Positions 5,067 through 56,360 are shown, counted from the stretch's first letter. The stretch: 64,000 bases of DNA from Alphaproteobacteria bacterium (GCA_021413445.1 JAIOQI010000043.1:10594-74593); one strand, 5' to 3'. Numbers and translations: made by a program. The notes: generated from the sequence alone by a model not told the origin.

Positions 5067-5093
5067 ACCCCTGTTTTCGTGTATCAAAGTCGA

Positions 5094-13806: not shown

Positions 13807-14256
13807 ATGAATAAGCTTTATCGCCTTGCATACCTTATAATATTGTTATCATTGACTTTTTCCGCCGCCGAAGCCTCTCCCCGCCAGGAGGTGCTGCAGG
13901 GGCCGATGACGGGGGAGGTCCTTAACGTCCTCGACGGGGACACCGTCAACGTCAAAATCCGCGTCTGGATCGGGCAGGAAATCGAGACCAGCCTGCGCAT
14001 CGAAGGCATCGACGCGCCGGAAATCAAGGGCAAGTGCGAAAAAGAACGCACGCTGGCCGAAGCGGCGCGGCAGGAAGTCGAGCGCCTGCTGAGCGACAAC
14101 CTGATCCGGGTTTACAACGTCCGCCTGGAAAAATACGCCGGCCGCGTGATGGCGGAAGCGCAGACCACGCAAGGCATCGACATCGGCAAACACATGATCG
14201 AAAAAGGCCTGGCCCGCCCCTACCACGGGGAAAAGCGCCAGCCGTGGTGTTCTTAA
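13807..14256 (+). CDS. Secreted thermonuclease (SNase) family protein
   Basis: Signal peptide, VLDGDTV, LRIEGIDAPE, KYAGRVMA, MIEKGLARPY. Confidence 0.9.
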   Translation: MNKLYRLAYLIILLSLTFSAAEASPRQEVLQGPMTGEVLNVLDGDTVNVKIRVWIGQEIETSLRIEGIDAPEIKGKCEKERTLAEAARQEVERLLSDNLIRVYNVRLEKYAGRVMAEAQTTQGIDIGKHMIEKGLARPYHGEKRQPWCS

Positions 14257-14897
14257 GGCTTGAAGCCTTTAAAACCGGTCCCTTTATGTTTTTCTTTCAG
14301 CGTCATCTGATGATAGGCCGCCTGCACGACGGCGAAATCAACGCCTAAAAATTCCTTGCCGTCCTCCGGCACTTTTTGCCACACCGCCTGCATCTCCTCC
14401 AGCCGCCCGCGCCAGAGGGCCGGTTTCAGGATGTGCTGCAGCTGCAGGCTCCCGACCGCCAGATCCAGAAGGTCGCGCCTGCCCTCGTGTTCCCTGAACT
14501 GCGACAAATCCCGCAAAGTCAGGCGATCTCCCGCCGCGATCATCTTCTCCGTAACTTTACCCAGACATCCCATCTTGCAGGCGCGCACCAGCGCCACCTC
14601 GTCGGTGTCCCCATATTCCTGCCGCAGCCAGTTTTTAATATCAGCCTGCGCCGCCATATCTGCAAAAAACGCCGCTTTCTCCGCACCGATGGCTTCCTGC
14701 AAAAGAGCCGCCACTTCGTGATGGCCGTCGAACAGCGCCAGGTTCAAAGCGGCGCCGTTCCTGCCAAAAGGGTCGGCGCCTTGCTCCAACAGCGTTTTCA
14801 CCGCCTCCAGATGCCCTGCGAAGGCAGCCGTGCTCAGGGCATCATCCATGTCCCTGTGAAACATGGCATTCTTTCTTGAGTTTTCGTCACCGGTCAT
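14253..14897 (-). CDS. Ankyrin-repeat protein with C-terminal WxGRxxEM module
   Basis: ALSTAAFAGHLEAVKTLLEQGAD, ALNLALFDGHHEVAALL. Confidence 0.8.
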   Translation of the reverse strand: MTGDENSRKNAMFHRDMDDALSTAAFAGHLEAVKTLLEQGADPFGRNGAALNLALFDGHHEVAALLQEAIGAEKAAFFADMAAQADIKNWLRQEYGDTDEVALVRACKMGCLGKVTEKMIAAGDRLTLRDLSQFREHEGRRDLLDLAVGSLQLQHILKPALWRGRLEEMQAVWQKVPEDGKEFLGVDFAVVQAAYHQMTLKEKHKGTGFKGFKP

Positions 14898-31790: not shown

Positions 31791-31904
31791 GAGACTTCCT
31801 GAAGAAAGATGAAGCTTTAACTCACATAACCCGAATCTTTTAATTCTAACATTAGCTTAAGGAAAATAAAAAGCGCTTACTATGTAAATTATCTCTTAAC
31901 TTTA

Positions 31905-33626
31905 TTAAAATCTGCTTAACATGCTTAAAAATAACCGATAGCCGTCATTCCCCTCAGAAGTAACGTCTTTATTCAAGGGCTTATCCAATTCTACGTAGCC
32001 TGAGAAGTTCTGCACCCCGTTGAAACGGATACCGAGTCCCGCCGAGGTCAGCGAATCCCTGGATTTTTCGCCCACGGCGGGGTCTTTGTTGTTCACCCGG
32101 CCGTAATCGATGTTGCCGTAGGCCTGATAGGACTCGATGAAACGATTGCTGACGGCGGCGCCATAGCGCAGTTCCACCACGCCCGCCCAGCCGCCGTCGC
32201 CTGTAATCTCGCCGGAATCATAGGCGCGGCCATAGGACTGCCCGCCGACCGTAAATTCCTCAGAGGACAGCAAAGGATCGCGGGAGACCTGGCCGGTCCC
32301 GGACAACATCAGGGCGTAGTGATCCGACAAGGTCTGAACCCGCGTGGCCGTCACGGCGCCTTTCAGGAACCGGTGCGCGCCGTTTGCGCGGGAACGGCCC
32401 GGGCCGTCCTCGGTCGCGCCCAGGATGTCCAGACCCTGAGTCGCCGTCAGGTCAACCTTGCTGACGCCATTGAAGGAATCGGCATAGTCGAATTGGGCGG
32501 TGGCGTGCAGGGTGCGCACGCGGTCATTGGCCGTCTTGATGCCCTGAATATCCGTCACCGAATTGAGCGCCTCCAGCCCGCCGAGAAGATTCAGGTTGTA
32601 ACGGCGGTTGCGCATCATGGGATAGTTGCCTTCCAGGGCATACGTCTGGCTGTCTCCCTGGATGCCCAGCGCCGCGATGTTGCCGCCCGGCTCGGAGCCG
32701 GTGAGCGTCACCTGACCTTTGATTTTAAATCCCTCGGAGCCGATTTGCTCTTCATGCGTGATTTCGCCGAACTTCAGTTCCTTCGTCTCTCTTGTCACAA
32801 TGCCGCGGAGGGTCGTGCGGTCATGGATGCCGAGCGTTGAACTGAAGGCGCCCACCAGCGTTCCCTTATAAGGGCCGATATATTTTGAACTGCGGTTGTC
32901 GATACTGGCGGCCCCCTCGAAAAGATCTTCCTCGATGTTGATAATCAGGTCGCCGCCGCCCACAGTGCCGGACGGCTTGATAAAGCTTTTGGCGGTGATG
33001 CCCGGCAGGTCGTCGATGAGGAGCAGATAACGCTCCATCTCCCTGGTATTGGCGACGCCCGCCGCCTTGATCTTATCGGCGAATGCCGCGATGAGTCCGT
33101 CTTTATCGCGGAATTTCCCCACCAGCCTGACGTCGGAAATGCGGCCCTCAACGGCGCGCAAGTGGACGACGCCGCCGGAGATTTTTTGCGGCGACAGGAC
33201 CGCCCGCGAGAAAATATACCCGTCTTCGCGGTATTTTTTGGTGACGCGTTGCGCAATGATGTTCAGGTCGGCAAAGGAAACTTTGCTGTCCAGCATGCCT
33301 TTGTACAAAGGGGCCAGGGCGGCATCCTTATAAACGGATGTTCCGTCCAGAACGATTTTCTTGAGAACAAAAACTTTTTCCGTGCTGAGGCCCTTGCCGG
33401 CAGCCTCTTCCCGGGGGACCACGACCCCCTCTTCGAGGCGGGACGGCGCGCGCTTTTCCTCTTCCAGGCTCCGCAGGATGATGCCGGGCTGGGCGGGAGA
33501 GGGTATCGACTGCGCCGGGGACGCTTCCGGCAAAGCCAGCACGAAAAACGCCACGGCCGCCAAAGCCTTAAAACTCCGCGTATCAGGGCGATGTCGCATG
33601 ACCTTGTATTTCCTGTTAGGCTTCAA
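31905..33626 (-). CDS. TpsB (ShlB/FhaC/HecB) outer-membrane transporter
   Basis: POTRA (YREDGYIFSRA, VEGRI), DLPGI, GG..YGRAY, C-terminal Phe; upstream of TpsA. Confidence 0.92.
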   Translation of the reverse strand: MKPNRKYKVMRHRPDTRSFKALAAVAFFVLALPEASPAQSIPSPAQPGIILRSLEEEKRAPSRLEEGVVVPREEAAGKGLSTEKVFVLKKIVLDGTSVYKDAALAPLYKGMLDSKVSFADLNIIAQRVTKKYREDGYIFSRAVLSPQKISGGVVHLRAVEGRISDVRLVGKFRDKDGLIAAFADKIKAAGVANTREMERYLLLIDDLPGITAKSFIKPSGTVGGGDLIINIEEDLFEGAASIDNRSSKYIGPYKGTLVGAFSSTLGIHDRTTLRGIVTRETKELKFGEITHEEQIGSEGFKIKGQVTLTGSEPGGNIAALGIQGDSQTYALEGNYPMMRNRRYNLNLLGGLEALNSVTDIQGIKTANDRVRTLHATAQFDYADSFNGVSKVDLTATQGLDILGATEDGPGRSRANGAHRFLKGAVTATRVQTLSDHYALMLSGTGQVSRDPLLSSEEFTVGGQSYGRAYDSGEITGDGGWAGVVELRYGAAVSNRFIESYQAYGNIDYGRVNNKDPAVGEKSRDSLTSAGLGIRFNGVQNFSGYVELDKPLNKDVTSEGNDGYRLFLSMLSRF

Positions 33627-37149: not shown

Positions 37150-38103
37150 TCACATCTTCATTTTCGACGGCGTCGTCTTGTTCGCCTGGGGCGTCACCGG
37201 CGCCACAGACGACCCTTTCTGGAGCGTCGTCAGCCCCTTCTGGGCAGCGGCCAGCTTGACAGCCTCTTGGGCGGCGGTGCTGCCGACTTCCCCGGCGCCC
37301 AGGCCTAAGCTTTCGGCATTCATCACCATATTATCGTGCCGCTTCACGCTCTTCTTGTCGCCTTCGTCGGGCACGATGTCGCCGAGGTCATAGGTGCCGA
37401 CCTTCCCCCCCGGAAAGACGCAGAGGTTGGCGGGGTTGTGGTCGAGGCTGATGTATCCCTGCGGCAGGTCCTTGTAGAATTGCTTATAGGCCTCATTCGT
37501 GAAATTGGAAACGTCCGCCTCGGCAAGCTGGCCGGTGCTGACCAGGTATTTCGCGACCTGCCCCAGCGACACCACTTCCGGCAGCACGTCGATGCGCGCG
37601 CCGCTGGCCAGCCGCTCTCCCGTCACGTCATCCTTCTTGGGCGTCGGCGTGAGCGGGTCGGCCACGATCTCTCCCGCCGCATTGACGAATGTGCTGTCAT
37701 AGGGCTGCAGGACGATCGGCGTATTGACGGCTTTCCCCTCCCTTTGGGAATCGGTGATGCGCACGACGCAGCCATTGGGATAGTCCGGGCCATAGCCCCG
37801 CAGCACGGTCGCGCCCGCCCCCTCGGTGGACAGCATCTCCAGCGAGGTGATGCCCATCTGCTGCAGCGAGGCATTGATACCCTCGGCCAGCGGCGAGAGC
37901 TTTTTGGCTTTTTCAGGGGTGCTGCTGTCCTGGCTCTCTTCCATCATGGCCAGCACCTGGCTGAAGTCGGCGAATTTCTCCGGCATCACACCGGCGAACT
38001 TCGACTCCTCCACTCCCTTTTTCTGCGGAAAACCGTTCTGCTGATAACAGCCGGCGGCAGCTTCGGCGAGCAGTTCCTGCACTTTATTGATGTCAAAGCT
38101 CAC
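37150..38103 (-). CDS. Hypothetical protein with protein-kinase-like motifs
   Basis: EGAGATVLRG, CVVRI, LDHNPANL, TYDLG in canonical kinase order. Confidence 0.6.
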   Translation of the reverse strand: MSFDINKVQELLAEAAAGCYQQNGFPQKKGVEESKFAGVMPEKFADFSQVLAMMEESQDSSTPEKAKKLSPLAEGINASLQQMGITSLEMLSTEGAGATVLRGYGPDYPNGCVVRITDSQREGKAVNTPIVLQPYDSTFVNAAGEIVADPLTPTPKKDDVTGERLASGARIDVLPEVVSLGQVAKYLVSTGQLAEADVSNFTNEAYKQFYKDLPQGYISLDHNPANLCVFPGGKVGTYDLGDIVPDEGDKKSVKRHDNMVMNAESLGLGAGEVGSTAAQEAVKLAAAQKGLTTLQKGSSVAPVTPQANKTTPSKMKM

Positions 38104-38225
38104 ACCCGCACCTGTCCCTGTTTAAAAAAACGGTTATTTACAGATTACAGGAGATTGGTTAAATTTTTGTGAATATCCGGGGCAGCGGGGGTATTTATCT
38201 GCTCCTGTCCTAACTATACGGCCAC

Positions 38226-39419
38226 TCAATCCCCATCCATAAACTTCTTTAAGGGGCCTTCAACAAAGTGATTAGGTTTCCATCCCTTAAGAACCTTATC
38301 TAATAAAAGAGCATCCGCAGCGCCCGCCGTAAAGCCAATAAGTGGATGTGCCAGTGACCCAATTAACGAGAAAATAGAAAATCGGATAATTTTTTCTGGC
38401 AGCCTATCCACCCAAGTTTCGGCCGTGGCGGCCTTATAATACTCAGTGACTAACTTTTCATCAGGACCGATCTTCTCAAGATGACCCTTAAACTTCTTAG
38501 CCTGATCTAATAATTGGCGAAAATCTGAGAAGGTTTTTTCGCCCTTATTGAGTGTGTTACGGATCGAATTGCCCTTTAGAATTAGGTCCTGAAACGATTT
38601 TATTTCGTTTGCATTTCGGTCACGCTTTATTAACAAATAGTCGAATTGACTCTCCAGTAACGAATCAACCTCTGGCGAGGTCACAAGCTCTGATAGATAA
38701 TGTGCCGATAAGAACATCTCTCCTCGAGCAGAAAGAAGTCTCGAGAGAATAAAAGCATTATTAATACTAGCAACGCTTGGGGGGATACTTCGGTGGAATT
38801 CTTTATTTGCAAGCGCATAATCAATGTTATGCATTGCAACAATGCCGTTATCAGTTTTTACAACACGGAATTGGAGATCAATTGATTGTGAGTAGTTAGG
38901 AACATATAGATCTAATAAAGCTTTTGCTGCTGACTTGGCATAGCGCTCATTATCCAGGTCATCATAAGCGACACCAGTTACTCCCTTTTTGTGGCGGCAC
39001 ATCTGGTTAATTTTAAGAACAGGAGCTTTCTCTACAATCTTTTTTAAAACTCTCTTCGCTTGTACCTTGTCGGGAACGGCCTTCTCAATTAGCTCTTGAA
39101 GTATTTCTTCACGCGACATGTTCCCTTTGGAGATATGCCCAGAAACCTCAAATGCAATAAAGTTATGCGTCTCTATGCCACTTCTTCCTGTATTGGTACT
39201 GACCCCCAATGAATCTTCTAAAACGCTGACTGAAATGTGTCCATCATCCATAAGCCCAATAAAATCATCAGGGCCTATACCCTTCAGTAAGGAAACGAGC
39301 TGTCCCCTATCTGCCGCAATGATCACCTGCTGATAAAAAAGTAAAGTTTCAGCCAGAAGCCCAACATCAGCAGCCCGTGACAAGCTATCAACAGGGCGAA
39401 ATAAAATAGACTCAAACAT
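38226..39419 (-). CDS. AT-rich hypothetical protein (islet at tRNA-Lys)
   Basis: 397 aa ORF, AGGAG RBS, clearly lower GC than its flanks. Confidence 0.8.
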   Translation of the reverse strand: MFESILFRPVDSLSRAADVGLLAETLLFYQQVIIAADRGQLVSLLKGIGPDDFIGLMDDGHISVSVLEDSLGVSTNTGRSGIETHNFIAFEVSGHISKGNMSREEILQELIEKAVPDKVQAKRVLKKIVEKAPVLKINQMCRHKKGVTGVAYDDLDNERYAKSAAKALLDLYVPNYSQSIDLQFRVVKTDNGIVAMHNIDYALANKEFHRSIPPSVASINNAFILSRLLSARGEMFLSAHYLSELVTSPEVDSLLESQFDYLLIKRDRNANEIKSFQDLILKGNSIRNTLNKGEKTFSDFRQLLDQAKKFKGHLEKIGPDEKLVTEYYKAATAETWVDRLPEKIIRFSIFSLIGSLAHPLIGFTAGAADALLLDKVLKGWKPNHFVEGPLKKFMDGD

Positions 39420-39666
39420 TCAGAAACTCCTATATTGGGCAAACACAAGTCGAGAATCACAACTTGGCTATCCGAATAATTTGGCTCAGCACGGGTTGTT
39501 CTTAAGTGACCCACTGATGGGTTGTCAGTGGGTCGAATTGCTTTAAATTGTTGGAATACAATGACTAACCACTAAAGCGTACTACAAAAATCGAGTGTTT
39601 TAATAGTACACTTGAGATTCTATAGTACAGTTGCACATTTCAAAATGTACTAAGCCCTCGAAAAAA

Positions 39667-39742
39667 TGGTGGTCCCTGTTGGATTTGAACCAACGACCTA
39701 CTGATTAAGAGTCAGCTGCTCTACCAACTGAGCTAAGGAACC
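39667..39742 (-). tRNA. tRNA-Lys(CTT)
   Basis: Reverse complement GGTTCCTTAGCTCAGTTGGTAGAGC...CTGA-CTCTTAA-TCAG...GTTCAAATC...CCA. Confidence 0.96.
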
Positions 39743-39822
39743 ACAGCGAAGTGAGGGGGAGATTACGGTATTTGCCGGGTCGCTGTCAAGGGGGACATAT
39801 CCCCTTGTTTCCCTTCACAAAT

Positions 39823-39853
39823 AAAAAAGCCTGGCGCAGATAGCGCCAGGCTT
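39823..39853 (-). terminator. Intrinsic terminator of cspA
   Basis: AAGCCTGGCGC/GCGCCAGGCTT stem with poly-U on the minus strand. Confidence 0.85.
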
Positions 39854-39875
39854 GATTACGTCGGCAACCTAAGAG

Positions 39876-40079
39876 TTAGGCCGCCTTCAGATTCGTGGCA
39901 GAGTTCTTGCCGCGTTCGGAAGTGATGTCAAAAGTAACCTTTTGACCTTCGTTCAGGCCGCGCATGCCAGCACCTTCAACGGCGCTGATGTGAACAAACA
40001 CATCTGCATCGCCGCTATCGGGCTGGATGAAACCGAAACCTTTTTGAGCGTTGAACCATTTAACTGTACCTTGAGCCAT
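39876..40079 (-). CDS. cspA: Cold-shock protein
   Basis: [23 protein letters not shown]; GGAGG RBS; long 5' leader. Confidence 0.96.
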
Positions 40080-40595
40080 CTTGGCCTCCTTTAAGAAACG
40101 CACTCTCGTGCATGAAGCCCGCACACCATTGCGCGAACTTTATCCGAAAATAGCGATGTCTTGGGGGAAAGCCGCGTAACGGCGAACAAACAAGTCAGAA
40201 CTTAAAAATCTCGAATATGACCAACGTAGGCCTTTGGCGCGGAATAGCAAGAACTATCTCATTTATATTTTTTTGACCCTGACATTGTTCATCTTTTTGT
40301 CCGTCGTGTGATCGCTTTGCGCGGAATCGTTTATAGCCTGAGCGTGATTCCATATAAATTGACATAGCCCAGGTTATATGTAATACTCCCTCTTCGTAAG
40401 GATATAAAGTCCTGCATCTTTCTTTGTCGCAAGTACCGTTTGAAGCCGTGGCAATGTGACCTGCAAAAATTTTGTTTCTTTGAAAGACCGCCGCTGACAA
40501 CCCAGCCGGCGCACATGCTTTTTATCAGCTTTGATCAATAGTGGTCATCGCACCGCAGCATTATCTGCACCGCCGCCACTTGAAAGAACGTAACA

Positions 40596-40862
40596 ATGAA
40601 CAGTGAAACAAAACGCGGAAAAGCGCAGTTGCGCGACATGAGCGCGGCGCAGGGGATATACGACGTCGATTACATGGTGCATGTCAACACCCGGACAATT
40701 AAAAATATCGGCGTGCCGGTCGTCACGCAAAAAATGGTCACCGCCTACGTTCAATCCATCAACGGCTATGTCCTCAAAAACGGGAAATATGTCCTGGAGG
40801 AGAACGGCGAGTCCCTTTATCAGCTGGAAAAAGCCGGGACGACCTGGCGCGTTATTTCCTGA
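40596..40862 (+). CDS. Small hypothetical protein
   Basis: 88 aa ORF with coding-like composition. Confidence 0.55.
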   Translation: MNSETKRGKAQLRDMSAAQGIYDVDYMVHVNTRTIKNIGVPVVTQKMVTAYVQSINGYVLKNGKYVLEENGESLYQLEKAGTTWRVIS

Positions 40863-40877
40863 AACTCCCGTCAAAAT

Positions 40878-41933
40878 TTACGGAGAGGGTGCGCCGGGAG
40901 AGGGCGGCGTGTTTTTTGCAGGAGGAGCGACCGGGGCATCCCCGGCCTTGTCGTTAAAGGTTTTACCCAGCTCCAGGCTGCCGGCCTTCGCGGCGGAACC
41001 TGAGTCTGGCGGCGGCGGAGAATTCCCCGCCGGTTTTTTCTTCCGCTGCGCCTGAAAATATTTGAGCCGGGCCATATAAAATTCCGGCGACGTCTTTTCA
41101 GCGATTTCGCCAAAAAACTTTTCGACGTAGGTGGAGGGCCTCCACCCGGTCGGCGGCTTTTGCTCCCGGGGCCGGGCGCGCATCTTGCTGTTAAACTGAT
41201 AAGCGATGCCCTGCGCGATTTTTGTCGATTTCAGCGCCTGCCGCGCCGCGGCGAGAGCCGGGACGGCCATAAACTGCGTCGCCGCCAGCACGCCCGACAA
41301 AACGGGATGGAGCACGGTTTGCTTGATGATCCTGATAAAACGGGGCGCTTTATCGGTGAGCGCGGACTGCGCGATCTGGGCGTGCCATACTTTCGCCATG
41401 ACTTCCACCCAGGTCAGCGCCGCCGACAGGCCGATGAAGGCGCAGACGCCGATGCCGGTGCCGATGATTTTATTGACCGTTTCATGGCCGAAGAGCGGCT
41501 TTCCGGAGCGGCGGCGGGGGTTTAAAAGCCACGCCGTGGCGCGATAGACGCTCAAGGCGCAGTAGTATTCGAAGAACTCACCCGCCTTCTTCGCGCCAGC
41601 GGTGAATTTTCCTTTTATGGTCCGCCAGCGCTGGCTGAATTTTGAGTCCGGGTTTTTATAAGCGCCGAACTTGAAACGCTGGGCGAGCGGGTTCCATGCC
41701 TTCATCGCCAAAGGCTTTACGGCGTTGGCGGGAATCGCGACCAGGATATTGAACAGCCAATCGGCGCCGCCCATGACCGCCTTGCCCGCGGCGGCAAGGC
41801 CATCAAAACAGTCATATCCGAACTTTGCAAAGAAAACCGCCGTGCGCTGCTGCCCGGGACTCAGGACATTGAAAGCGACCGCGTCTTTTTCAAACTGCGC
41901 TTGCTTCTCTTCAACTACGCCCGGAGCGTGCAT
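40878..41933 (-). CDS. Hypothetical membrane protein
   Basis: 351 aa, hydrophobic segments, Pro/Lys-rich tail. Confidence 0.7.
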   Translation of the reverse strand: MHAPGVVEEKQAQFEKDAVAFNVLSPGQQRTAVFFAKFGYDCFDGLAAAGKAVMGGADWLFNILVAIPANAVKPLAMKAWNPLAQRFKFGAYKNPDSKFSQRWRTIKGKFTAGAKKAGEFFEYYCALSVYRATAWLLNPRRRSGKPLFGHETVNKIIGTGIGVCAFIGLSAALTWVEVMAKVWHAQIAQSALTDKAPRFIRIIKQTVLHPVLSGVLAATQFMAVPALAAARQALKSTKIAQGIAYQFNSKMRARPREQKPPTGWRPSTYVEKFFGEIAEKTSPEFYMARLKYFQAQRKKKPAGNSPPPPDSGSAAKAGSLELGKTFNDKAGDAPVAPPAKNTPPSPGAPSP

Positions 41934-48124: not shown

Positions 48125-48517
48125 TTAAACCGGCTTGAACAGCTTGGCCAGGTTTTGCGCCTTGTTGACGGCGAAAAGGTCGCTCATGGCCTGGGTGCGC
48201 CCGTCTTGCGGGACAAGGGCGGACACGTCGCCTTCCTTCATCACCCGCAGGGAAATAGCGGCGTAAAAATCGACTAATTGGACAAGCAAGGCCGCGCGCG
48301 GCGCCTGAACCGCGTCATCATTTCCGCCCTTATCATGGGGAATATTTTCGAACAGGATCTCCGCGATTTTTTTCATCTCGCCGAGTTCCTGCTGTGTGGC
48401 GGCCTTGCGGAAGGCATCGACCAGGCCGGGATTGGCTTTTACTTTTCTTTCCACGGCTGCCTGGAATTCGCTGGCCAGATAGGCGATGGTGAAAATATCC
48501 GGTTTCTTCGGCGTCAT
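48125..48517 (-). CDS. Hypothetical protein (last gene of the vWA/AAA operon)
   Basis: 130 aa; ATG 1 nt after the previous stop. Confidence 0.7.
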   Translation of the reverse strand: MTPKKPDIFTIAYLASEFQAAVERKVKANPGLVDAFRKAATQQELGEMKKIAEILFENIPHDKGGNDDAVQAPRAALLVQLVDFYAAISLRVMKEGDVSALVPQDGRTQAMSDLFAVNKAQNLAKLFKPV

Positions 48518-48518
48518 C

Positions 48519-50030
48519 TCATTGCCCCTTCGGCGGTTGCTTGGGCTGGATCTTGAAGCCGCCTTTTTTCTGCTTCAGCGTCGCCTGCTTGGCATTGACT
48601 TCCGCCTGGGCGAAATCCACCTGATGGCGCTGCGACACGCTGACCTGCGCCCACAGGGTTTTCATCTCGGAAACGCGGCCCGCCCAGAGATCCGGCGCGA
48701 AAGCCAGCGTCAGCTGGTTTTTTTCCGCCAGGATGCTCAGCAGCGTATTGCCGTGGCGGTCCTTGGAGAGGAAATCGCCCAGCGTGACAAGGTCGCCGCC
48801 CTGCTTGGAAATCGCGAGCACTTTGTCGAAATGGCCGAACTTCACGGCGCACATCAGGCAGGAATTCTCCATCTGGCCCGTGGGCGCGCGCAAATCGGCG
48901 ATCGTCAGTTTCTCTCCCCGCTGGGAGAGCGCCGCCTGCACGGAATCAAATTTGTCCCATACCGCCTTGAGCCCCAGCGGCAGCACGGCCTTTTCCGCCG
49001 GAGTGGCTTCATTGAGGGGTTTCAGCAGGTCGGCCTTGCCCGTCACGGTCAGCGCCTGAAAGCGCGACGCATAGGTCAGGCTTTCCGCTTCGGCATAGGC
49101 GTTGTCGAAATCGCGCGTCGTCATGGAGGCGGTTTTCCAGCCGTCGAGGACATGCGACCACAGGGTCAGCATGTCCGGCAGGCGATCGACCCAATGGGCG
49201 GCCGTGAAAACCTTGGCGAGCGCCCCGTGCTCTGCGGCGCGCGCGAGGATATTCTTGGCATAGGAAACCTGCTTGATGAAGTCCACGATCTCAAAACGCT
49301 CGCCATGGTCCTTGAGGGTCTTGACCACCGCGTCATATTTGCCCCACGCCGAGCTGCCGTCGAAAACGGTGTCGCCGGAACCGTCCATCATCAGGACGTA
49401 TTCCTTGCGCAGATAATCGCCGGCCAGCGCCAGCTTGGCCGTAAACTCGTCGAATTCGCCGCGCCACGAGAAGGCCTGGCGGACGTCGTAGGGCGTCAGG
49501 CGCGCCTTGGCCAGGCTGTCCTCGGGGGTGGTCTTGCCTTCCGCCGCGAACAGCTTGCGTTTCAGGCTGGCGGGAGTCAGGCCCTGGGACTTGAAAATAT
49601 CCTTGCGGTTGGGCACCGGCACCTTGTACCACAGGCGCTCCATCTCCTCGTAACGGCCCTGCCAGACTTCAAAAGTGAACACGTTGCCGAGGCCCTTGCA
49701 TTCCACGGCGCTGTCGAGAAGCGTCTTGTTCGGGTCTTTGCCCAGCGGCTTCATGAAGTCGTCATAGCTGAAGGTGTCGCCGTTGGCCTGCACGATCTTG
49801 GCGATCTTCTCAAAGTTTTTCCAGGCGCCTTCGCTGTCGATGATGAACTTGCCCTCGTCGTCCGGCGCCAGGAAATCCGCCTTGGTCAGCGTTTGCAGCT
49901 GCTGCGACATCGCTTCCATCGTCTTCGCCAGGTTGTCGCCGGAAAAGGCGCGCTGGCGGTACTTCTCGGCTTCCGGGTGCTCGCAGAGGGAGGCGATGAT
50001 CGCCTGTTTGATGTACTTGCCGCTGCTCAT
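48519..50030 (-). CDS. Degenerate ankyrin-like repeat protein
   Basis: About seven LTxxDF...GxxLL repeats and three WxGRxxEMxxLW-type modules; ATGA overlap with the upstream gene. Confidence 0.8.
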   Translation of the reverse strand: MSSGKYIKQAIIASLCEHPEAEKYRQRAFSGDNLAKTMEAMSQQLQTLTKADFLAPDDEGKFIIDSEGAWKNFEKIAKIVQANGDTFSYDDFMKPLGKDPNKTLLDSAVECKGLGNVFTFEVWQGRYEEMERLWYKVPVPNRKDIFKSQGLTPASLKRKLFAAEGKTTPEDSLAKARLTPYDVRQAFSWRGEFDEFTAKLALAGDYLRKEYVLMMDGSGDTVFDGSSAWGKYDAVVKTLKDHGERFEIVDFIKQVSYAKNILARAAEHGALAKVFTAAHWVDRLPDMLTLWSHVLDGWKTASMTTRDFDNAYAEAESLTYASRFQALTVTGKADLLKPLNEATPAEKAVLPLGLKAVWDKFDSVQAALSQRGEKLTIADLRAPTGQMENSCLMCAVKFGHFDKVLAISKQGGDLVTLGDFLSKDRHGNTLLSILAEKNQLTLAFAPDLWAGRVSEMKTLWAQVSVSQRHQVDFAQAEVNAKQATLKQKKGGFKIQPKQPPKGQ

Positions 50031-50344
50031 GATGATTTCTTTACCTCTTTAAAAAGCGTCTTGGTGATCGCATTTCTCTGGCACAGCTTTTCAATATCGC
50101 CCTCGGTCATCGCGGCGTCAAGCGGGATGAAAATGACCTTGTTTTCCGGATTGCGCAGGGCGGCTTCCAGCGTCAGCAGGGTATCGGCCACGGCCACCCC
50201 CTTGTCTTTGGAGATGATGGCGCTTTCCCACCCCTGCTCGACCGTGAACAGCCGGCTGCCGTGGGGCAAAAATTTGCACCCACGCTCCATCGCGTTCTGG
50301 TGCGCGACTTCCACGGCAACCTTGTTCATGAGCTCAGATGACAT
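50027..50344 (-). CDS. Hypothetical protein (105 aa)
   Basis: In operon; stop overlaps the next start. Confidence 0.75.
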   Translation of the reverse strand: MSSELMNKVAVEVAHQNAMERGCKFLPHGSRLFTVEQGWESAIISKDKGVAVADTLLTLEAALRNPENKVIFIPLDAAMTEGDIEKLCQRNAITKTLFKEVKKSS

Positions 50345-50386
50345 GACGCCCCCTTTTCAACCGGGATGACCCCCGGCAAGAACTCC

Positions 50387-53032
50387 TTACATGGCCTTCT
50401 TGCTGGCCTTGATGAGATACTTGCCGTACATCATATCAATATTGCCATCGACCAGCAACTCCGCCAGTTGGGGGTTTTTGCCCTTCAGGTGCTCCGCATC
50501 GACGTCGTTCCGGTACTTGAAGGCTTCCGCCAGGCGGCCCCTCACCGATTCCGGCATGTTGCGCGTCAGGTCGTTCAGCGCCGCCTCGACCTTGCCGATC
50601 GCGTTCGGGTCGTTGCGATCGACATGGGTGATGCCCGCTTCACGGAAGGCGGCCAGCAGCTTGGACGGCACTTTCTCGCCCACGATCAGGGTTTTGCCGC
50701 GCGCTTCGTTGCGGACGATATGGATCGAAACGTCGCAGGGCGCGCCGCTGGCATCGTTGAACAGCACGCGCAGCGTGGTGGTCGCCAGCTTCTGGGCCGA
50801 ACGGTTCTCAGCGATGTGCAGGGCTTCGTCAAGATCAGCAGTAGCACCCTTGGCCCCGGCATCCGGCGTGTTCTGGTTGGCCGGAGCGGTGTTCTGGTCT
50901 TCCGTCAGCGGGCGGATGTTGGCGTCCCAGATCGCGGCGATATTCTTGCCGCTGATCGTCGGCAACGCCAGCGACGCCATGAAATCATCATGATGCACCA
51001 GGTCGTCGTAGCTGAGGTCCAGCTCCTTCTTCGCCAGGGTATAGGCCGCCACGTCCTCGATCTTCGCACCCGTCAGAGGCGACGCCCCCAGGGTTTCGTG
51101 GTCGCGGTTGACGATGAAGAGTTCCTTGGTCTCGGCGGTATTTTTCTGGCCGACTTTTTCCAGGGCATCATGCACCTTTTTCATGGTGACGATCTGGTCG
51201 TCTTCCGCCGTGATCTCGGGGGAGATCTGGCGGATATAGTCGCAGAACACCTTGCGGGCGAGCTGCGCCTGCTTGCCAAGATCGCGGTCGGCGAAAGAGC
51301 TGATGTTCAGCGCCTCCTCGACCGATTTCTGGCCGCTGTGCGCGCCTTCCAGCAGGTGCACGTCGTGCAGGCCGAACTCGTCCATCGCCTTGCTCAGCTT
51401 GGCGTAGAGCTTTTCCTTGCCGATGGCGGCGGATTTCTCATAGACCATGCGCTCCAGGAACTCAACCAGGCGGGTGCCGAAGAAGAGCGCCGGATTTTCG
51501 TCATCCTGCTCGCTCAGCACCGGCTGCTTCATGAAATCCTTGAAGTTGATGAACGCCGGCGCCTCGGCCGGCTCCATGCGCGGGCGGATGGCGGCAGCCT
51601 CTTCGAGGTGCTGCTTGATCTTGCGGAAATCGACGCCTTCTTTCTTGGAATACTCTTCGTCCACTTCCTCGACCAGGTCGGCATGGCCCTGCATAATCTT
51701 TTCGGCATCGGTCAGGGTCGCCCACTTGTCGTAGAACTGGGCGAGCTTCTCGGACGCGCTCACCACGTTCTTCCAGTTCATCAGCAACGCTTCCTGTAGC
51801 GCCGGAATAGCGACGCCTTCGATCTGGGCTTTTTCCTTGCGGAGCGCCATCAGCCACGCGCCGAAGGCATCCGGGTCCTTGTTGGCCTGGTCCTTGAACA
51901 CGGTGTAGAGCGTCGATACCGGCAAACCCACCATCATCTGGCAGATGCGGTGCTGCCAGTCGATCACATCCGGATCGGGCAGGGTTTGCGGCGAAAGGCG
52001 GGAATAAACCGACTTGTTCAGGCTGCGGGTGGTGACGCCGTCTTCGGTCTTGTTGCCGGTCAGGGTGACGAAGAAGCCGATGCCCATGTCTTCGCGCTTG
52101 AAGGTGAAGGAGCTGGGGCCCGACGTCGTGTCCTTGTTCTTGAGCGGGTTTTCAACGGTGCACTGGTCGATTTCGCCGTTGAGGAACTGCCAGACGGTCT
52201 GCAACGCGTTGTCGGAGCCTTCGCGCGACTTGTTGTACTCGTCGAGCACGCCTTCGCGGTTCTCCTTGAACCAGCGGATCAGCGGGCCGTACTGGGAATT
52301 CATGCCCAGCGCGTTGCCGCCGGCATTGTCGAGGCCTTCGATATGGCTGACTTCCTTCATGATCTTGTAGGCCGCATCGACTTCCTCGGGCTTGGCCTTA
52401 CCCTTGAAGTAATTCCAGTCGATGGACTTCACTTCATCTTTTTCAATGGAGACGCCCGGCAGGGATTTCAGTTTCGCCAGGGACAGGGCCTGCAGCGTGC
52501 CGGCTTTCAGGCGCTTGTCGATCGCGGAGGGCAGAGCGTCGCCGGAGCCGAAATCGAGGACCATTTCGAACAGCAGTTCGTTCATGTTCTTGCCGCCGCA
52601 GTCGAATACTTCGACCGACTTCTTGCTGCGCAGCCGGCCTTGCAGGGCGCCCATGAAGGACTTGCCGTGGCCGGGGTTGCCGATCAGCATCTGGGTGCGG
52701 TTTTTGCTTTCCGGCTTGCGTCTTTCCAGGCCGTCAAAGAACAGCTGCAGCATCGAAGGCACAGGCATGTCGCAATAAGCCAGCGCCATAACCTCCTGAT
52801 AGGAGCGTTCGGTATAAATTTTCATCGGACGGGCGTCGCTGGCGATGACGGACAGGACCTGCTCCAGCTCCGAGTTGCCCTTGTACTCGACGCGCTGCGA
52901 GCCCCACATCGGGAAAGGGCGGTCGGCGGTGCCGAGCGGCTTTTCCAGCTGCGCCAGAATCTCAGGGGTCAAATCCTTGATTTTGGTGGCGAGGAGGTCT
53001 GTAGCGGGGAGGTTTTTTGCGTCTTTTTTCAT
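50387..53032 (-). CDS. Large AAA+ ATPase, MoxR/CbbQ/midasin-like
   Basis: Walker A GNPGHGKS, Walker B GVLDEYN, sensor-1 TLTGN, Arg finger LNKSVYSRL. Confidence 0.8.
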   Translation of the reverse strand: MKKDAKNLPATDLLATKIKDLTPEILAQLEKPLGTADRPFPMWGSQRVEYKGNSELEQVLSVIASDARPMKIYTERSYQEVMALAYCDMPVPSMLQLFFDGLERRKPESKNRTQMLIGNPGHGKSFMGALQGRLRSKKSVEVFDCGGKNMNELLFEMVLDFGSGDALPSAIDKRLKAGTLQALSLAKLKSLPGVSIEKDEVKSIDWNYFKGKAKPEEVDAAYKIMKEVSHIEGLDNAGGNALGMNSQYGPLIRWFKENREGVLDEYNKSREGSDNALQTVWQFLNGEIDQCTVENPLKNKDTTSGPSSFTFKREDMGIGFFVTLTGNKTEDGVTTRSLNKSVYSRLSPQTLPDPDVIDWQHRICQMMVGLPVSTLYTVFKDQANKDPDAFGAWLMALRKEKAQIEGVAIPALQEALLMNWKNVVSASEKLAQFYDKWATLTDAEKIMQGHADLVEEVDEEYSKKEGVDFRKIKQHLEEAAAIRPRMEPAEAPAFINFKDFMKQPVLSEQDDENPALFFGTRLVEFLERMVYEKSAAIGKEKLYAKLSKAMDEFGLHDVHLLEGAHSGQKSVEEALNISSFADRDLGKQAQLARKVFCDYIRQISPEITAEDDQIVTMKKVHDALEKVGQKNTAETKELFIVNRDHETLGASPLTGAKIEDVAAYTLAKKELDLSYDDLVHHDDFMASLALPTISGKNIAAIWDANIRPLTEDQNTAPANQNTPDAGAKGATADLDEALHIAENRSAQKLATTTLRVLFNDASGAPCDVSIHIVRNEARGKTLIVGEKVPSKLLAAFREAGITHVDRNDPNAIGKVEAALNDLTRNMPESVRGRLAEAFKYRNDVDAEHLKGKNPQLAELLVDGNIDMMYGKYLIKASKKAM

Positions 53033-56000
53033 CGTTTTTTATCCATCTTGTTATGAGCTTTTTTCATGGCCCGACGTTTCTGGGTATTTGGAACGGCGAT
53101 AAAACTACCGCATTTCCTGATTTTATCGAGCAGCAGCCCGACGATCGCCATTGGCACTTTGTTCGGATCGCTCCCGAGAACGACGCCCATTTCCTGGGAC
53201 GGTTTCCGCGACTTCATGCTGTTGGCCATTTTTTCCATCGGCGTGCCCCGGTTCGCGGTGATGATCGCGACATCGAACGTCACCTTGTCGGAGTACTCGA
53301 ACATGGTATGCATCTTTTCCTTGGCTTCGGAGACATCGAACATGTCGCCGTCGGAAATGATCAGTACGTGCGTGAACCCGCTGAGGGTCCCGCTCTTGCC
53401 CCGCTGTTCGCCGATGGTCTCGGCGGTCTTAACGACAGCAGGCGCAAAATCCGTTCCGGAATTGAGGCCGCCGCGCATTTTCTCCATGGCCTTGCCGACC
53501 GTGATGCGGTCGTCGCCGGGCTTAATCAGGATCGGCGGGTCGGAATCACCCCACATGCCGACATAGACGTTCATCTTCATGTCCTTGCCGGCCGCGGCCT
53601 CATAAAGGATGGCGGCGGACTGCAGGGCGCTTTGCAGCGGCGACGGCCCGCTGCCCATGGCCGAGCCCATGCTGCCCGAACCGTCGATCAGGATGACAAT
53701 GTCGATCTCGGTCGGGACCATCTTGTTTTCATCTTTGTTGAAGCGCTTGAGGTCGTTTTCCTCGACGCCGCCCGCCAGCTTCTTGATCGTCAGGTTGCGG
53801 TGGGCTTCCATGTTGAAACGGTCCTTGACCTCGCCGTTTTCCGGCAGGATGTCCAGCGATTTCGACTGGACGACCTTACGCTGCAGCTGGCGCTTCTGGA
53901 TTTCCTTGAAAACCTTGCGCACCTGCTGGATCGGCTCGCTCAACTCGGCGATCCGCCGCGGGTAATCCTTCCAGTCCTGCTTGGCGAGATCCGCCAGGGA
54001 ACGGCCGTCGCCATGGCCGGCGCCCTTGCCTTTACCCTTGCCCTTGCCGTTCTTCTTGCCTTTTTTCTTTCCGTCCGCGTCTTCGCCGTCGGCATCCTCG
54101 CCATCGGCATCGGCGTCATCGCCGTCTTCATCGGCGTCTTCGGCTTCTTTTTCCAGCTCTTCCATGGTTTTGGCGTCTTCGTCGGCATCGGCATCGTCGC
54201 CATCAGCGTCCTTGCCTTCGCCGTCGGCATCCTTGCCGTCCGCGCCGGGATCGGTTTCATCGGCGGGCACTTCGGAAGCGTTTTTCGACTTCGGCATATC
54301 GCCGGCGCCCTCGACGGGAACCGTTTCCTCGCCGTCCGCGCCGAGCTTGCCTTCAGCGCCTTCGGCTTTTTCGCCGTCCTTGTCGCCGTCCTGTTTCTCG
54401 CCGTCTTCGGCTTTATCGCCTTTATCGCCCTTGTCTTTTTTGTCGCCTTTTTTGCCGTCTTTCTTGTCGCCCTTCTTGCTCTCGCCGTCTTTTTGCGGGT
54501 CGCCTTGCTGGTCGTCAGACGGCTCGCCGTCCTCGTCAATCTCGTCGGCATCCTGGGGATCGCCCTGCTGCTGGCCGCGCTGCGGCTTGCCTTTGCCCTT
54601 CCCTTTGCCTTTACCCTTGCCTTGACCTTGGCCCTGGCCGTCGGAAGGATCGCCCTCCTGGCCGTCATCACCGTCTTGTTCCTGGCCGTCGTCGCCGTCC
54701 TGATCCTGCTCGTCGCCTTTTTCCTGCTGCTTTTCCTTGGCTTCTTTCAGCTGCTGGTCGATCTGGTCATTGGCCTGGGTGAGGATTTTCTGGATCAGGT
54801 CCTCGGCATACAGCTTCCAGATTTCCTCGATGATCGCCTTGCGGTCCTGGTCGGCCCGCGCCACGCGGCCCATCAGGTTGTTCCAGCCGTACAGCCGCTC
54901 GTGCTGTTTCGGCTGCAAATTCTCCAGCCCCTTGGGGCCGCCGCACAGCTCGCGCAGGTGCTGGAAGTCGGCGTGAGAAACGCCGTCCTGGTCGTCCTTG
55001 GCGGCGTCCGGGCGGCCGGCCAGCGTCGCCGTCTTGCGCACCATGTTCGGATCGACGCCGACGCGGAACCAGCCGTCGTCGGTATTGTCGAACAGGCCGT
55101 TGTTCTGGAAGAAGTTCAACTGCACGGCGTTGCAAAGGTTCATATAGCGGCGCAGTTCCTCGGAGGCGTTCTTGTCCGCCGGCAGGCGCGTCAGGCCGAT
55201 CGCGCGCTGCGTGACCGCCGTGTTGTTGAGCGACACGCTGTAATCCTGCAGCATCTGCAGGCCCATGTTGGCGACAAACCGGTTGGCGACGTTTTCTTCC
55301 GCCGCCATGAACATCATCCGGCGCAATTGCCATTCCGTGCTCAGCATCTGCAATTTCTTGTATTCTTCGGGCGTCAGCTTGGGGCCTTTTTTAGCAGCGG
55401 CCTTGTTCTCCTTCAGCATCAGCGGGCGCATCTCGCTGTAAAGATGCTGCATGCGCTTGGGGTAGCTGACCGACAGCAGCGCGTGGCCGATTTCGCGGTA
55501 AACGTCGGCGCGGGCGTGCTCGAAGCCGACGATCATCGTCTGCATCAGGTCAACGTCGATGATGTTCTTCTGGCGGTTGAAGCTGAAGCCGGTGCCCGGC
55601 TCGCCCCAGGAATACTTGGTGTCCTTGTCGCGCAGCGCTTCGCGGATATGGTGGGCGTGGGAGAGAAGCTCCTGATACGCGCCCTTGGTGCCGATCACCT
55701 GTTTCCACAGCTCCGTCTCGCTCAGGGAGACAGGCTCGGCGACGGGCTTTTTCCACGTCTTCTGCGCATCGGGATTCAGCTTGAGGTAGGCAAAAGCGGC
55801 GCCCCAGACCAGTTGTTTTTCCGGCGTGTCGAACTGCGGCGTCTTCGGCGCCAGGCCGTTCTCGACCGCTTCAACGGCGTTCAGCACTTCCTGCTTGAAA
55901 TCCTGCGCGTTGCCGGGCAACGCGGCATAAAAAGCCTTTAAATCTTCCAGTGTGAAAGGCTGCGGGTTTTCGGCAGCCTGCGCAGCGCGAATCTTGCCGT

Positions 56001-56073
56001 TCAGGGAAAACCTGTGGCGCGTCAGGGGCTCGCGGAGAATACTCTCTATTTTCCTTCGGTCTTTATTGCTCAT
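53029..56073 (-). CDS. Large vWA (MIDAS) domain protein with acidic linker, CobT/CbbO-like architecture
   Basis: IVILIDGSGSM (DxSxS), SGTD, ISDGD; ~250-aa D/E/G/K/Q low-complexity region; REIGH motif in the N-terminal domain. Confidence 0.85.
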   Translation of the reverse strand: MSNKDRRKIESILREPLTRHRFSLNGKIRAAQAAENPQPFTLEDLKAFYAALPGNAQDFKQEVLNAVEAVENGLAPKTPQFDTPEKQLVWGAAFAYLKLNPDAQKTWKKPVAEPVSLSETELWKQVIGTKGAYQELLSHAHHIREALRDKDTKYSWGEPGTGFSFNRQKNIIDVDLMQTMIVGFEHARADVYREIGHALLSVSYPKRMQHLYSEMRPLMLKENKAAAKKGPKLTPEEYKKLQMLSTEWQLRRMMFMAAEENVANRFVANMGLQMLQDYSVSLNNTAVTQRAIGLTRLPADKNASEELRRYMNLCNAVQLNFFQNNGLFDNTDDGWFRVGVDPNMVRKTATLAGRPDAAKDDQDGVSHADFQHLRELCGGPKGLENLQPKQHERLYGWNNLMGRVARADQDRKAIIEEIWKLYAEDLIQKILTQANDQIDQQLKEAKEKQQEKGDEQDQDGDDGQEQDGDDGQEGDPSDGQGQGQGKGKGKGKGKGKPQRGQQQGDPQDADEIDEDGEPSDDQQGDPQKDGESKKGDKKDGKKGDKKDKGDKGDKAEDGEKQDGDKDGEKAEGAEGKLGADGEETVPVEGAGDMPKSKNASEVPADETDPGADGKDADGEGKDADGDDADADEDAKTMEELEKEAEDADEDGDDADADGEDADGEDADGKKKGKKNGKGKGKGKGAGHGDGRSLADLAKQDWKDYPRRIAELSEPIQQVRKVFKEIQKRQLQRKVVQSKSLDILPENGEVKDRFNMEAHRNLTIKKLAGGVEENDLKRFNKDENKMVPTEIDIVILIDGSGSMGSAMGSGPSPLQSALQSAAILYEAAAGKDMKMNVYVGMWGDSDPPILIKPGDDRITVGKAMEKMRGGLNSGTDFAPAVVKTAETIGEQRGKSGTLSGFTHVLIISDGDMFDVSEAKEKMHTMFEYSDKVTFDVAIITANRGTPMEKMANSMKSRKPSQEMGVVLGSDPNKVPMAIVGLLLDKIRKCGSFIAVPNTQKRRAMKKAHNKMDKKR

Positions 56074-56360
56074 CGAAAGACTTTCATAAAAACTTGATTG
56101 AGACTCAAGAACGGCGCTTTTGAACGAGCGCCAGCGTAACATTTCTGAAGAATAGGTAAAAGGGTAAAAATGAAATACAACGTAAAATTATGGACAATTT
56201 TTCGGCTGTAAACTTCAGCATATAAACATGCTTTGTATTTTTATTTCTCAGTTTTTTAATTATGGATAGTTATACATTTCCAGAATTCCCATCAATTCTG
56301 CAACGCAAAAGCGCCTGCCGGGCCGAAGAGATAGTTTGTGAAAAATTACCGAAGGGGCGA

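Follow-up and report, generated by a model that had tools for sequence, protein, structure and literature searches.

A conserved four-gene cluster around a divergent, predicted MoxR-class ATPase and a vWA/MIDAS protein in Alphaproteobacteria

Introduction

Five co-oriented genes lie on the minus strand, between positions 48125 and 56142, of a stretch of DNA from an Alphaproteobacteria bacterium (GCA_021413445.1, JAIOQI010000043.1:10594-74593) that was analyzed at its full length of 64,000 nucleotides and is referred to here as the window. We letter these genes in transcription order: A encodes a protein with a von Willebrand factor A (vWA) domain, B a predicted AAA+ ATPase, and C, D and E three further proteins. 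The source assembly comprises 2.11 Mb in 87 contigs and is 87% complete. A preliminary description of the same DNA had presented all five genes as one operon for a candidate undescribed protein-remodelling system, a lineage-specific unfoldase that would possibly handle secreted effectors. Here, we report that genes A to D, rather than all five, form a conserved unit, that B is by predicted fold and conserved catalytic residues an active-looking MoxR-class ATPase that family models miss, and that the cluster is most likely a protein-remodelling machine.

Pairs of MoxR ATPases and vWA proteins are widespread, and a client is known for just a few of them: Rubisco, NO reductase, LdcI, and the chelatases for cobalt and magnesium. 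In the parts of two papers drawn on here (PMC13036017, PMC9976466), MoxR rings are described as binding one vWA protein via a pore finger and its C-terminus, and ATP hydrolysis as twisting or stretching the linker of the vWA protein so that the target is remodelled, often in a metal-insertion step.

Results

Gene order and junctions at the locus

The shared orientation of the five genes and all four of their junctions, as given in the preliminary description, were confirmed from open reading frame (ORF) coordinates and from the sequence itself (Table 1). Read directly in the sequence, A and B as well as C and D overlap by four nucleotides in an ATGA start/stop arrangement (53029-53032 and 50027-50030), and a single base at position 48518 lies between D and E. 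The ORF coordinates place a gap of 42 nt between B and C (50345-50386). The longest ORF of A spans 53029-56142 and would encode 1037 aa. Because the 23 residues before M24 are conserved in none of 29 aligned relatives, the start at 56073 is the better choice, as the preliminary description had already assumed. An AT-rich stretch separates this start from the stop codon of dksA.

Two properties of the locus mark the cluster as more than a chance succession of reading frames. The G+C content at third codon positions (GC3) of genes A to E is 0.69-0.84, which is of coding type and similar to that of the neighboring genes, and relatives of A to D with 45-80% identity occur elsewhere in the same order. 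A promoter and terminator scan detected no terminator-like site on the minus strand inside the cluster, and promoter-like sites were no more frequent than in shuffled sequence. The flanking genes are of a housekeeping kind (dksA, an ion-channel gene, flgI, genes for inositol monophosphatase and 5-formyl-THF cyclo-ligase, ymdB and tRNA genes), and the context of the cluster is chromosomal. No hydrophobic stretch of membrane-helix strength was predicted in A, B, C, D or E, and searches of all five proteins against Pfam, NCBIfam, PHROGs and PADLOC returned a single credible match, the vWA domain of A.

Table 1. Genes, domains and motifs of the cluster and a related gene, in window coordinates; all are on the minus strand.
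Feature	Position	Strand	Description
Gene A	53029..56073	-	1014 aa, putative vWA/MIDAS co-chaperone; start taken at M24; N-domain, acidic tether and vWA domain
A N-domain	54733..56073	-	447 aa, mostly helical; three-stranded sheet followed by motif helix; possibly zincin-like
A REIGH motif	55483..55497	-	Degenerate metal-site motif; HExxH in paralogous copies
A tether	53863..54732	-	ORF residues 471-760; about 290 residues of low complexity rich in D/E/K/G
A vWA domain	53032..53862	-	ORF residues 761-1037; complete MIDAS DGSGS ... SGT ... SDGD; conserved basic C-terminal tail
A DGSGS motif	53671-53685	-	First part of MIDAS
Gene B	50387..53032	-	881 aa, predicted divergent MoxR-class AAA+ ATPase
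B AAA+ module	51365..52795	-	Residues 80-556, including insertions that total about 220 residues
B Walker A	52658-52681	-	GNPGHGKS, residues 118-125
B Walker B	52238-52255	-	VLDE, residues 262-265
B C-terminal extension	50390..51364	-	Residues 557-881; two more alpha/beta regions, modelled with confidence
Gene C	50027..50344	-	105 aa, conserved small protein; universal third component
Gene D	48519..50030	-	503 aa, three copies of an ankyrin-linked module; candidate accessory adaptor or client
Gene E	48125..48517	-	130-aa orphan; real gene outside the conserved unit
D-module paralogue (P0320)	14253..14897	-	214 aa; N-terminal ankyrin repeats, one D-type module, basic tail

Genes A to D recur as a unit

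Three sets of related loci were compared. Among 19 loci centred on orthologues, from families f1, f8 and f4, A was present in 18, B in 19, C in 17 and D in 16. Their order was always A-B-C-D, and it holds in the family of the window and in other families of its order; one of these loci runs into a contig end. The f1 and f8 clusters are flanked by dksA and by the ymdB side. Another 13 loci, from 12 genomes of this family plus a single genome of a different one, hold a second copy, A'-B'-C', with 26-36% identity; of these, 13 contain A, 13 B, 12 C and none D. Fourteen distant loci, in which B is 22-50% identical, contain A in 13, B in 14, C in nine and a full-length D in eight; the flanking genes of the window occur in 0/14 of them, and the sole one without A is a short contig. 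The A-B pair is kept in 18/19, 13/13 and 13/14 loci of the three sets. Three of the distant loci represent a third paralogue group and have a gene with a D-type module downstream. C follows B in all three paralogue groups examined and, because A'-B'-C' triads recur as paralogues, we count it as part of the core.

A gene for an ABC exporter of about 620 aa (ABC_membrane plus ABC_tran) follows C' on the same strand in 11 of the 13 second-copy loci (L030-L041). As all of those loci come from one family, this linkage may be plain synteny.

The last gene behaves differently from the others. E was found beside the cluster in none of 33 related loci and in none of 11 same-genus genomes; its one homologue of 65% identity sits on an unlinked contig from a different genus, with weak ones elsewhere. 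Its GC3 of 0.69 is the lower end of the range for the cluster, and we regard E as a real but sporadic gene outside the conserved unit. The five-gene operon of the preliminary description is thus retained for A-B-C-D, which stay together and in order, and drops E; of the three downstream genes whose linkage that description had left to a neighborhood survey, C (17/19) and D (16/19) are linked and E is not.

The absence of D from three same-genus loci fits a reading in which the genes are mere neighbors with no shared function. That reading is disfavoured, and we judge it highly improbable: start and stop codons overlap by 4 nt at A/B and at C/D, the order A-B-C-D is kept in families in which all flanks are different, and the order A'-B'-C' recurs in paralogous copies.

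B was detected in 63 of 301 genomes of the order. By family, it occurs in 36/41 genomes of f1, 9/9 of f8, 3/3 of f4, 2/15 of f5 and 12/218 of f6, and in none of f3 (0/10), f7 (0/3) and f2 (0/1). Nine of 400 other genomes sampled across the class also carry it, all of 1.7-2.4 Mb in size (one of them, G340, is unpublished). The names on 33 related public contigs suggest a Micavibrio-like lineage: five read 'Micavibrio sp.', after a predatory genus, four Rhodospirillaceae or Rhodospirillales, and the rest unclassified Alphaproteobacteria, Proteobacteria or other.

A MoxR-class ATPase missed by family models

The AAA+ label that the preliminary description gave to B is supported by the predicted fold and by catalytic residues, whereas each family hidden Markov model (HMM) library searched fails to return it. 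B has no match in Pfam, NCBIfam, PHROGs or PADLOC, and no P-loop or AAA row appeared at the thresholds used. An exhaustive HMMER scan of 1.84 billion representatives, obtained by clustering at 50%, yielded just 243 proteins at E<=1e-3. All homologues that carry a name are called 'hypothetical protein', and a precomputed Pfam domain is attached to 0 of the 120 listed. The single sequence of B found no match in the Protein Data Bank (PDB), and a B profile found P-loop matches only. Since family HMMs miss B, its class membership rests on predicted structure.

From an alignment of 57 diverse members, with identities down to 23%, AlphaFold2 produced a model of B with a pLDDT of 87.7 and a pTM of 0.82 (the N-terminal domain of A was the second structure predicted). 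Compared with 48,161 chains by VIA-align, this model matched CbbQ2 first (Z 16.4, rmsd 3.8, 257/267 residues) and NorQ second (Z 16.0, 251/254 residues). The next rows were modules of dynein, Mdn1/Rea1 and McrB at Z 12-14, with Mdn1 and Rea1 at 12.2-12.8, followed by classical AAA, Lon and Clp proteins at Z 10-12. The AAA+ module of B, as predicted and as delimited by the VIA-aligned range of residues 80-556, hence superposes better on solved MoxR proteins than on other AAA+ clades. Foldseek searches are in line with this placement. The PDB list consists of AAA+ proteins at E of about 1e-4, with top target-normalised TM-scores of 0.50-0.56 for CbbQ2 and NorQ, and in the viral library phage proteins named 'MoxR-like ATPase' and 'CobS' head the list, CobS proteins taking ranks 2 and 10. 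In the protein-language Atlas, the ten best family-bearing neighbors of B all belong to the AAA_5 family or clan, the best at 0.96.

The residues expected of a working ATPase are conserved in this module. Across the 57 sequences, G123 and K124 of Walker A, N327 at sensor-1 and R345 are invariant, and G118 (also in Walker A), D264 and E265 of Walker B, R362 and R470 are nearly so; one of the conserved arginines would be the arginine finger and another sensor 2, an assignment that we infer. Taken together, the model and these residues identify B as an active-looking MoxR-class AAA+ ATPase, and by analogy with characterized members it would form a ring and hydrolyse ATP.

At 881 aa, B is far longer than NorQ and CbbQ, which have about 260-270 aa; the preliminary description had already called both A and B much larger than typical members. 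The model shows a small beta domain at the N-terminus, and the C-terminal extension of 325 residues, with pLDDT mostly 85-95, is specific to the B family. Residues 610-880 of B are the only part matched, at 38-45% identity, by stand-alone proteins of roughly 250-300 aa, from which it follows that the C-terminal domain also exists as a separate gene. These stand-alone proteins include P0251, P0253, P0257, P0261, P0267, P0269 and others, as well as G011:C34:3624-4355. A Pfam search of ten of them gave no family and one sub-threshold OVT1 match (P0261).

The source genome also encodes one canonical MoxR protein (G000:C12:34062-34460, AAA_3 at 196 bits, in a 336-aa frame). Apart from A, the genome has no detectable VWA_2-type partner for this protein, and tblastn detected no paralogue of B in this 87%-complete genome.

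A vWA protein with a tethered N-terminal domain

A is translationally coupled to B at the start/stop overlap and carries the vWA domain that the preliminary description had noted, with a complete metal ion-dependent adhesion site (MIDAS). It scores 28.6 bits against Pfam VWA_2 (cut-off 27) and is the only VWA_2 match in the source genome. In an alignment of 21 sequences, D76, S78, S80, S186, D187 and G188 of the vWA domain are invariant, and S151, G152 and T153 nearly invariant. The best PDB hit of the vWA profile, at E 0.038, is the vWA domain of a sporozoite surface protein; the single sequence of A had no match there.

Upstream of the vWA domain lies a tether composed of 31% D+E, 16% K and 18% G, with a net charge of -37. 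It contains a conserved island, VPVEGxGDMP (ORF residues 608-617), and tblastn matches at residues 607-632 recovered this island in 13 of the 19 orthologue-centred loci.

The N-terminal domain (N-domain) gave a confident model (pLDDT 89.5, pTM 0.87, AlphaFold2) that is harder to place. Foldseek returned nothing at E<=1e-3, and a profile search of the PDB nothing meaningful. The best VIA-align Z was 7.5, in a range that the tool grades as 'middling'. Among the 50 rows listed, seven belong to peptidases of zincin type or to DUF885 proteins (Ste24p 7.4, ZMPSTE24 7.3, DUF885 6.5 and 6.2, BepA 6.4, 3c37 6.1, ECE-1 6.0) and the rest are helical bundles. In the model, a helix directly after the small beta-sheet bears the sequence GFEHxRAxxx(R/H)EIGH. 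When 27 A sequences were aligned, all 11 second-copy A' sequences had HExxH at this site, including one at 25% identity from another family. The first histidine is lost in 16/16 first-copy sequences, which come from the f1, f8 and f4 loci with the window included and read REIGH in nine cases, REIGR in three, REIGK in one and otherwise in three. Downstream of the motif, E247 is invariant and E259 nearly invariant. We regard this N-domain as new and possibly zincin-derived. As the first HExxH histidine is lost here and kept in the paralogue, the window copy, judged from its motif, probably binds without cutting.

These features bear on a reading of the cluster as an ATP-gated protease, in which the N-domain of A would be a zincin metallopeptidase, the MoxR ring would deliver or activate substrates such as D-type proteins, and the window copy would be dead and serve to bind or regulate. 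The intact motif of the A' proteins, its zincin-style position in the model, the peptidases among the best VIA rows, and E247 or E259 as a possible third ligand all argue for it. Against it stand the REIGH of the window protein and the absence of HExxH from every first-copy sequence, the middling Z values and empty Foldseek list, and the lack of any match to Pfam peptidase families in the 27 members. Moreover, hhalign of the N-domain against DUF2201_N gave a probability of 0.14 on a thin alignment (6 sequences from 3 genomes). On balance, we consider a protease unlikely.

DUF2201_N and DUF2201 proteins are 'metallopeptidase plus vWA-like' proteins encoded next to MoxR genes. They resemble A in fusing a zincin-like domain to a vWA-type domain and differ from it in that members of the A family have no such Pfam match. 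DUF2201_N proteins from two larger alphaproteobacterial genomes (L095, L096 and L099-L101; G306 and G348) have a degenerate ALKHH in place of HExxH and, in parallel to A, an acidic low-complexity insertion.

The partners C and D

C has no Pfam match, its profile drew zero rows from the PDB, and its Atlas look-alikes (best 0.85) carry no family. All of its aligned relatives keep W39, and nearly all keep H28, C88 and E100. No fusion of C into a longer protein was seen among 8000 candidates, which is weak evidence. A complex prediction with C as partner of the A N-domain and B residues 560-881 (score 0.00, mark 0.32) was no evidence either way. Its recurrence makes C, and not D or E, the universal third component, a point that the preliminary description had missed along with the zincin-like motif of A and the paralogous triads.

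D is built from a module with the consensus W-x-GR-x-x-EM-x-x-LW and ends in a basic tail. An HMM made from its third module recovered that module at an i-Evalue of 2e-50 (a self-recovery) and copies 1 and 2 at 1e-11 and 3e-12. Applied to 16,612 ORFs of the genome, it found three further proteins of about 215-230 aa. One, P0320, is encoded in the window itself: it scores E 2.5e-21 with the D-module HMM, is 31% identical to D over 124 aa (tblastn, E 3e-7), and its N-terminal part matches Pfam Ank_2 at 27.9 bits (cut-off 27.3). P0320 and D also share a basic C-terminal tail of an FK.K/QP-like kind. The other two are products of tandem genes on the plus strand of contig C23 (G000:C23:4305-4994 and 5026-5679). 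The 'ankyrin-like' label of the preliminary description is only weakly borne out by the sequence of D itself (E 0.2 against Pfam ankyrin; Ank_2 in 2 of 15 relatives, best E 2e-4; ankyrin chains of the PDB at E 0.0015-0.5 for D residues 346-438 in a profile search), but a paralogue of its module is fused to true ankyrin repeats.

Other features of the window

At lower coordinates in the window, a two-partner secretion pair occupies 28671-33626 on the minus strand. It consists of a 1039-aa exoprotein, in which a TPS domain is combined with four MBG domains, and a 573-aa ShlB/FhaC-type transporter with a POTRA domain, and fits a contact-dependent lifestyle. In the region 37150-41933, which may be an island beside a tRNA gene, G+C falls to 0.44 (at 38001-40000) from about 0.58 elsewhere; the region contains tRNA-Lys (39667-39742) and three ORFs (317, 397 and 351 aa) without a Pfam family.

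Discussion

Relation to characterized MoxR-vWA systems

By structure and motifs the cluster groups with MoxR-vWA pairs, and by family HMM it does not. At the same time it differs from every characterized pair in its size, its added domains, the zincin-like domain, the tether and two extra genes. The literature on Micavibrio, Micavibrionales and MoxR/vWA metallopeptidases does not describe it in the titles, opening parts of abstracts and selected passages that were covered; in the portions of the genome paper on Micavibrio aeruginosavorus ARL-13 that were covered (PMC3189940), a vWF domain is mentioned only for the haemolysin-type protein GMV0107.

The closest likeness is to NorQ-NorD and CbbQ-CbbO. 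NorQ and CbbQ2 are the best structural matches of B, which covers almost their whole chains, and the gene next to B codes for A, which ends in a vWA/MIDAS domain with a conserved tail. In the passages drawn on here, the C-terminus and the vWA finger of NorD contact NorQ (PMC13036017). In contrast to the ATPases of these pairs, B is roughly three times as long: insertions account for about 220 residues, a beta domain is added at the N-terminus and an extension at the C-terminus. It also escapes the AAA_3 and AAA_5 HMMs. A in turn differs from NorD and CbbO in its N-domain and in its acidic tether of 290 residues. Neither an NO reductase nor a Rubisco client is present, and C and D are linked as extra conserved genes.

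CobT and BchD share with A the layout of an N-domain, an acidic linker and a vWA domain. This layout, here with the vWA domain at the C-terminus, raises the alternative of a motor that inserts metals or cofactors, as CobS-CobT and BchI-BchD do, with C as a small metal carrier. It gains from the phage CobS proteins among the viral fold matches of B, from one homologue auto-annotated as 'Mg-chelatase subunit ChlD', from the near-invariance of H28, C88 and E100 in C, and from the frequent insertion of metals by MoxR/vWA pairs, as stated in the parts of a paper used here (PMC13036017). We nevertheless consider it quite improbable. Pfam gives no CobS, CobT, CobT_C or Mg-chelatase match at E<=1, and a CobN/ChlH-type catalytic subunit was not detected in the 87%-complete genome. 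The neighborhood holds no target metalloenzyme, and A and B are much larger than the proteins of these systems. More broadly, no Pfam or NCBIfam row at E<=1 links A or B to CobS/CobT or RavA/ViaA, so that the full-length orthology to such a pair named in the preliminary description as a possible refutation was not found.

A further comparison is with the ternary MoxR-vWA systems of the type described by Kaur et al. in 2020. According to the passages drawn on here (PMC7159879), a MoxR-vWA core is combined in them with a third conserved protein, of VMAP, iSTAND, FtsH or beta-propeller type, peptidase domains fused to vWA are often inactive, and paralogous systems in one genome carry different fused domains. 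The cluster shares this three-component logic, and its paralogues show active-type and inactive-type motifs. A conflict or defence system, with C or D as third component and an inactive, effector-like peptidase domain, nonetheless strikes us as very unlikely. PADLOC yielded no credible match (its sole row was Cas8a for A, 10.5 bits, E 0.058), and Pfam detected no nuclease, TIR, caspase or trypsin domain. The cluster lies at a stable, syntenic position amid housekeeping genes across the family instead of in a variable island, and the extra domain of A is N-terminal to the vWA domain rather than C-terminal. C, with 105 aa, is far below the VMAP-C core of 7 strands and 6-7 helices given in the same passages (PMC7159879). 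None of the known third components was found in A to E by Pfam or PADLOC, where VMAP-C may lack a model.

Midasin (Mdn1/Rea1) offers a more distant parallel. In midasin, a D/E-rich region precedes the MIDAS domain, much as A joins a long D/E-rich segment to its own, and B gives an AAA_5-type fold match. The parts are, however, split over two chains in the cluster, with one AAA module per chain as opposed to six in tandem; the cluster is also bacterial, and no UBL-domain ligand was identified. The cluster thus recalls midasin, a likeness that makes no claim of membership. A bolder extension is that A-B-C constitutes a new 'split midasin' family of bacterial mechano-enzymes, in which the ring would reel in a tethered MIDAS so as to pull proteins captured by the zincin-derived domain, the HExxH paralogue cutting and the REIGH copy gripping, and D-type proteins with their basic C-terminal tail (D and three others in the genome) serving as dedicated substrates or adaptors. 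Concentrated as it is in Micavibrio-like bacteria and other Alphaproteobacteria with small genomes, the module could then perform a task tied to their lifestyle, for example by preparing proteins for use against prey or host cells. We think this unlikely to be correct as a whole.

A proposed remodelling mechanism

The reading that we favor, and hold to be probable, is that A to D form a conserved cytoplasmic module around the divergent MoxR-class ATPase B and the vWA/MIDAS co-chaperone A, and that this module remodels a client. By analogy with NorQ-NorD and CbbQ-CbbO, a ring of B would hold the vWA domain of A, which would dock on it together with its basic tail, and the client would be held by the MIDAS site of A, by the N-domain, or by both. 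The acidic tether of about 290 residues would join the parts of A and pass force on to the N-domain, a MIDAS-bound client or the two together. ATP hydrolysis in B would then pull or twist A and thereby remodel the client, for example by loading or releasing a cofactor or partner. C would act as a small core subunit or regulator, and D or its paralogues as an accessory adaptor or client built of ankyrin-linked modules. Ring formation, the contact between A and B, and the roles of C and D are all modelled on characterized relatives and would follow from that analogy.

The preliminary description had gone further and proposed an unfoldase, possibly for secreted effectors. Nothing was found in favor of this, the five proteins lack a predicted membrane segment, and according to the parts of the two papers used here (PMC13036017, PMC9976466) characterized MoxR/vWA pairs act by remodelling clients that are already folded, or by inserting metals, and not by unfolding.

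A number of observations weigh against a four-gene remodelling machine. Neither AAA_3 nor AAA_5 matches B at E<=1, and six-frame scans of the genome found AAA_5 matches in 17 places and AAA_3 matches in 4, none of them in B. Fold searches barely reached B outside residues 21-557. A client of the known kinds (Rubisco, NO reductase, a chelatase partner) does not occur near the cluster, in agreement with the preliminary description, and CobN was not found in the genome at its 87% completeness. Conservation is also imperfect close to home: D is missing from the three same-genus loci mentioned above, and the scan did not detect B in 3 of 11 same-genus genomes (83-93% complete). A same-genus locus beside dksA and flgI (L042, G001:C34) has a much more diverged A that was matched in three pieces at 35-48% identity, a B shortened to a 738-aa frame, and no detectable C or D, and the cluster may be decaying in that genome. 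This patchy presence, together with the L042 copy, indicates a module that is common but dispensable. We weigh these points against the recurrent A-B pair, the predicted fold and conserved catalytic residues of B, and the complete MIDAS of A, and retain the remodelling machine as the most likely interpretation.

Significance

The B family shows how far the MoxR class can diverge: it is invisible to the HMM libraries searched, yet it keeps a fixed order with three partners across several families. The cluster offers a compact, soluble four-protein system in which a MoxR ring and a tethered MIDAS could be studied, and with its paralogues it supplies zincin-like adaptors in both an 'active-motif' and a 'dead-motif' version. 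Four protein families (the N-domain of A, C, the D module and the C-terminal domain of B) are added to the core genome of a group that has received little study.

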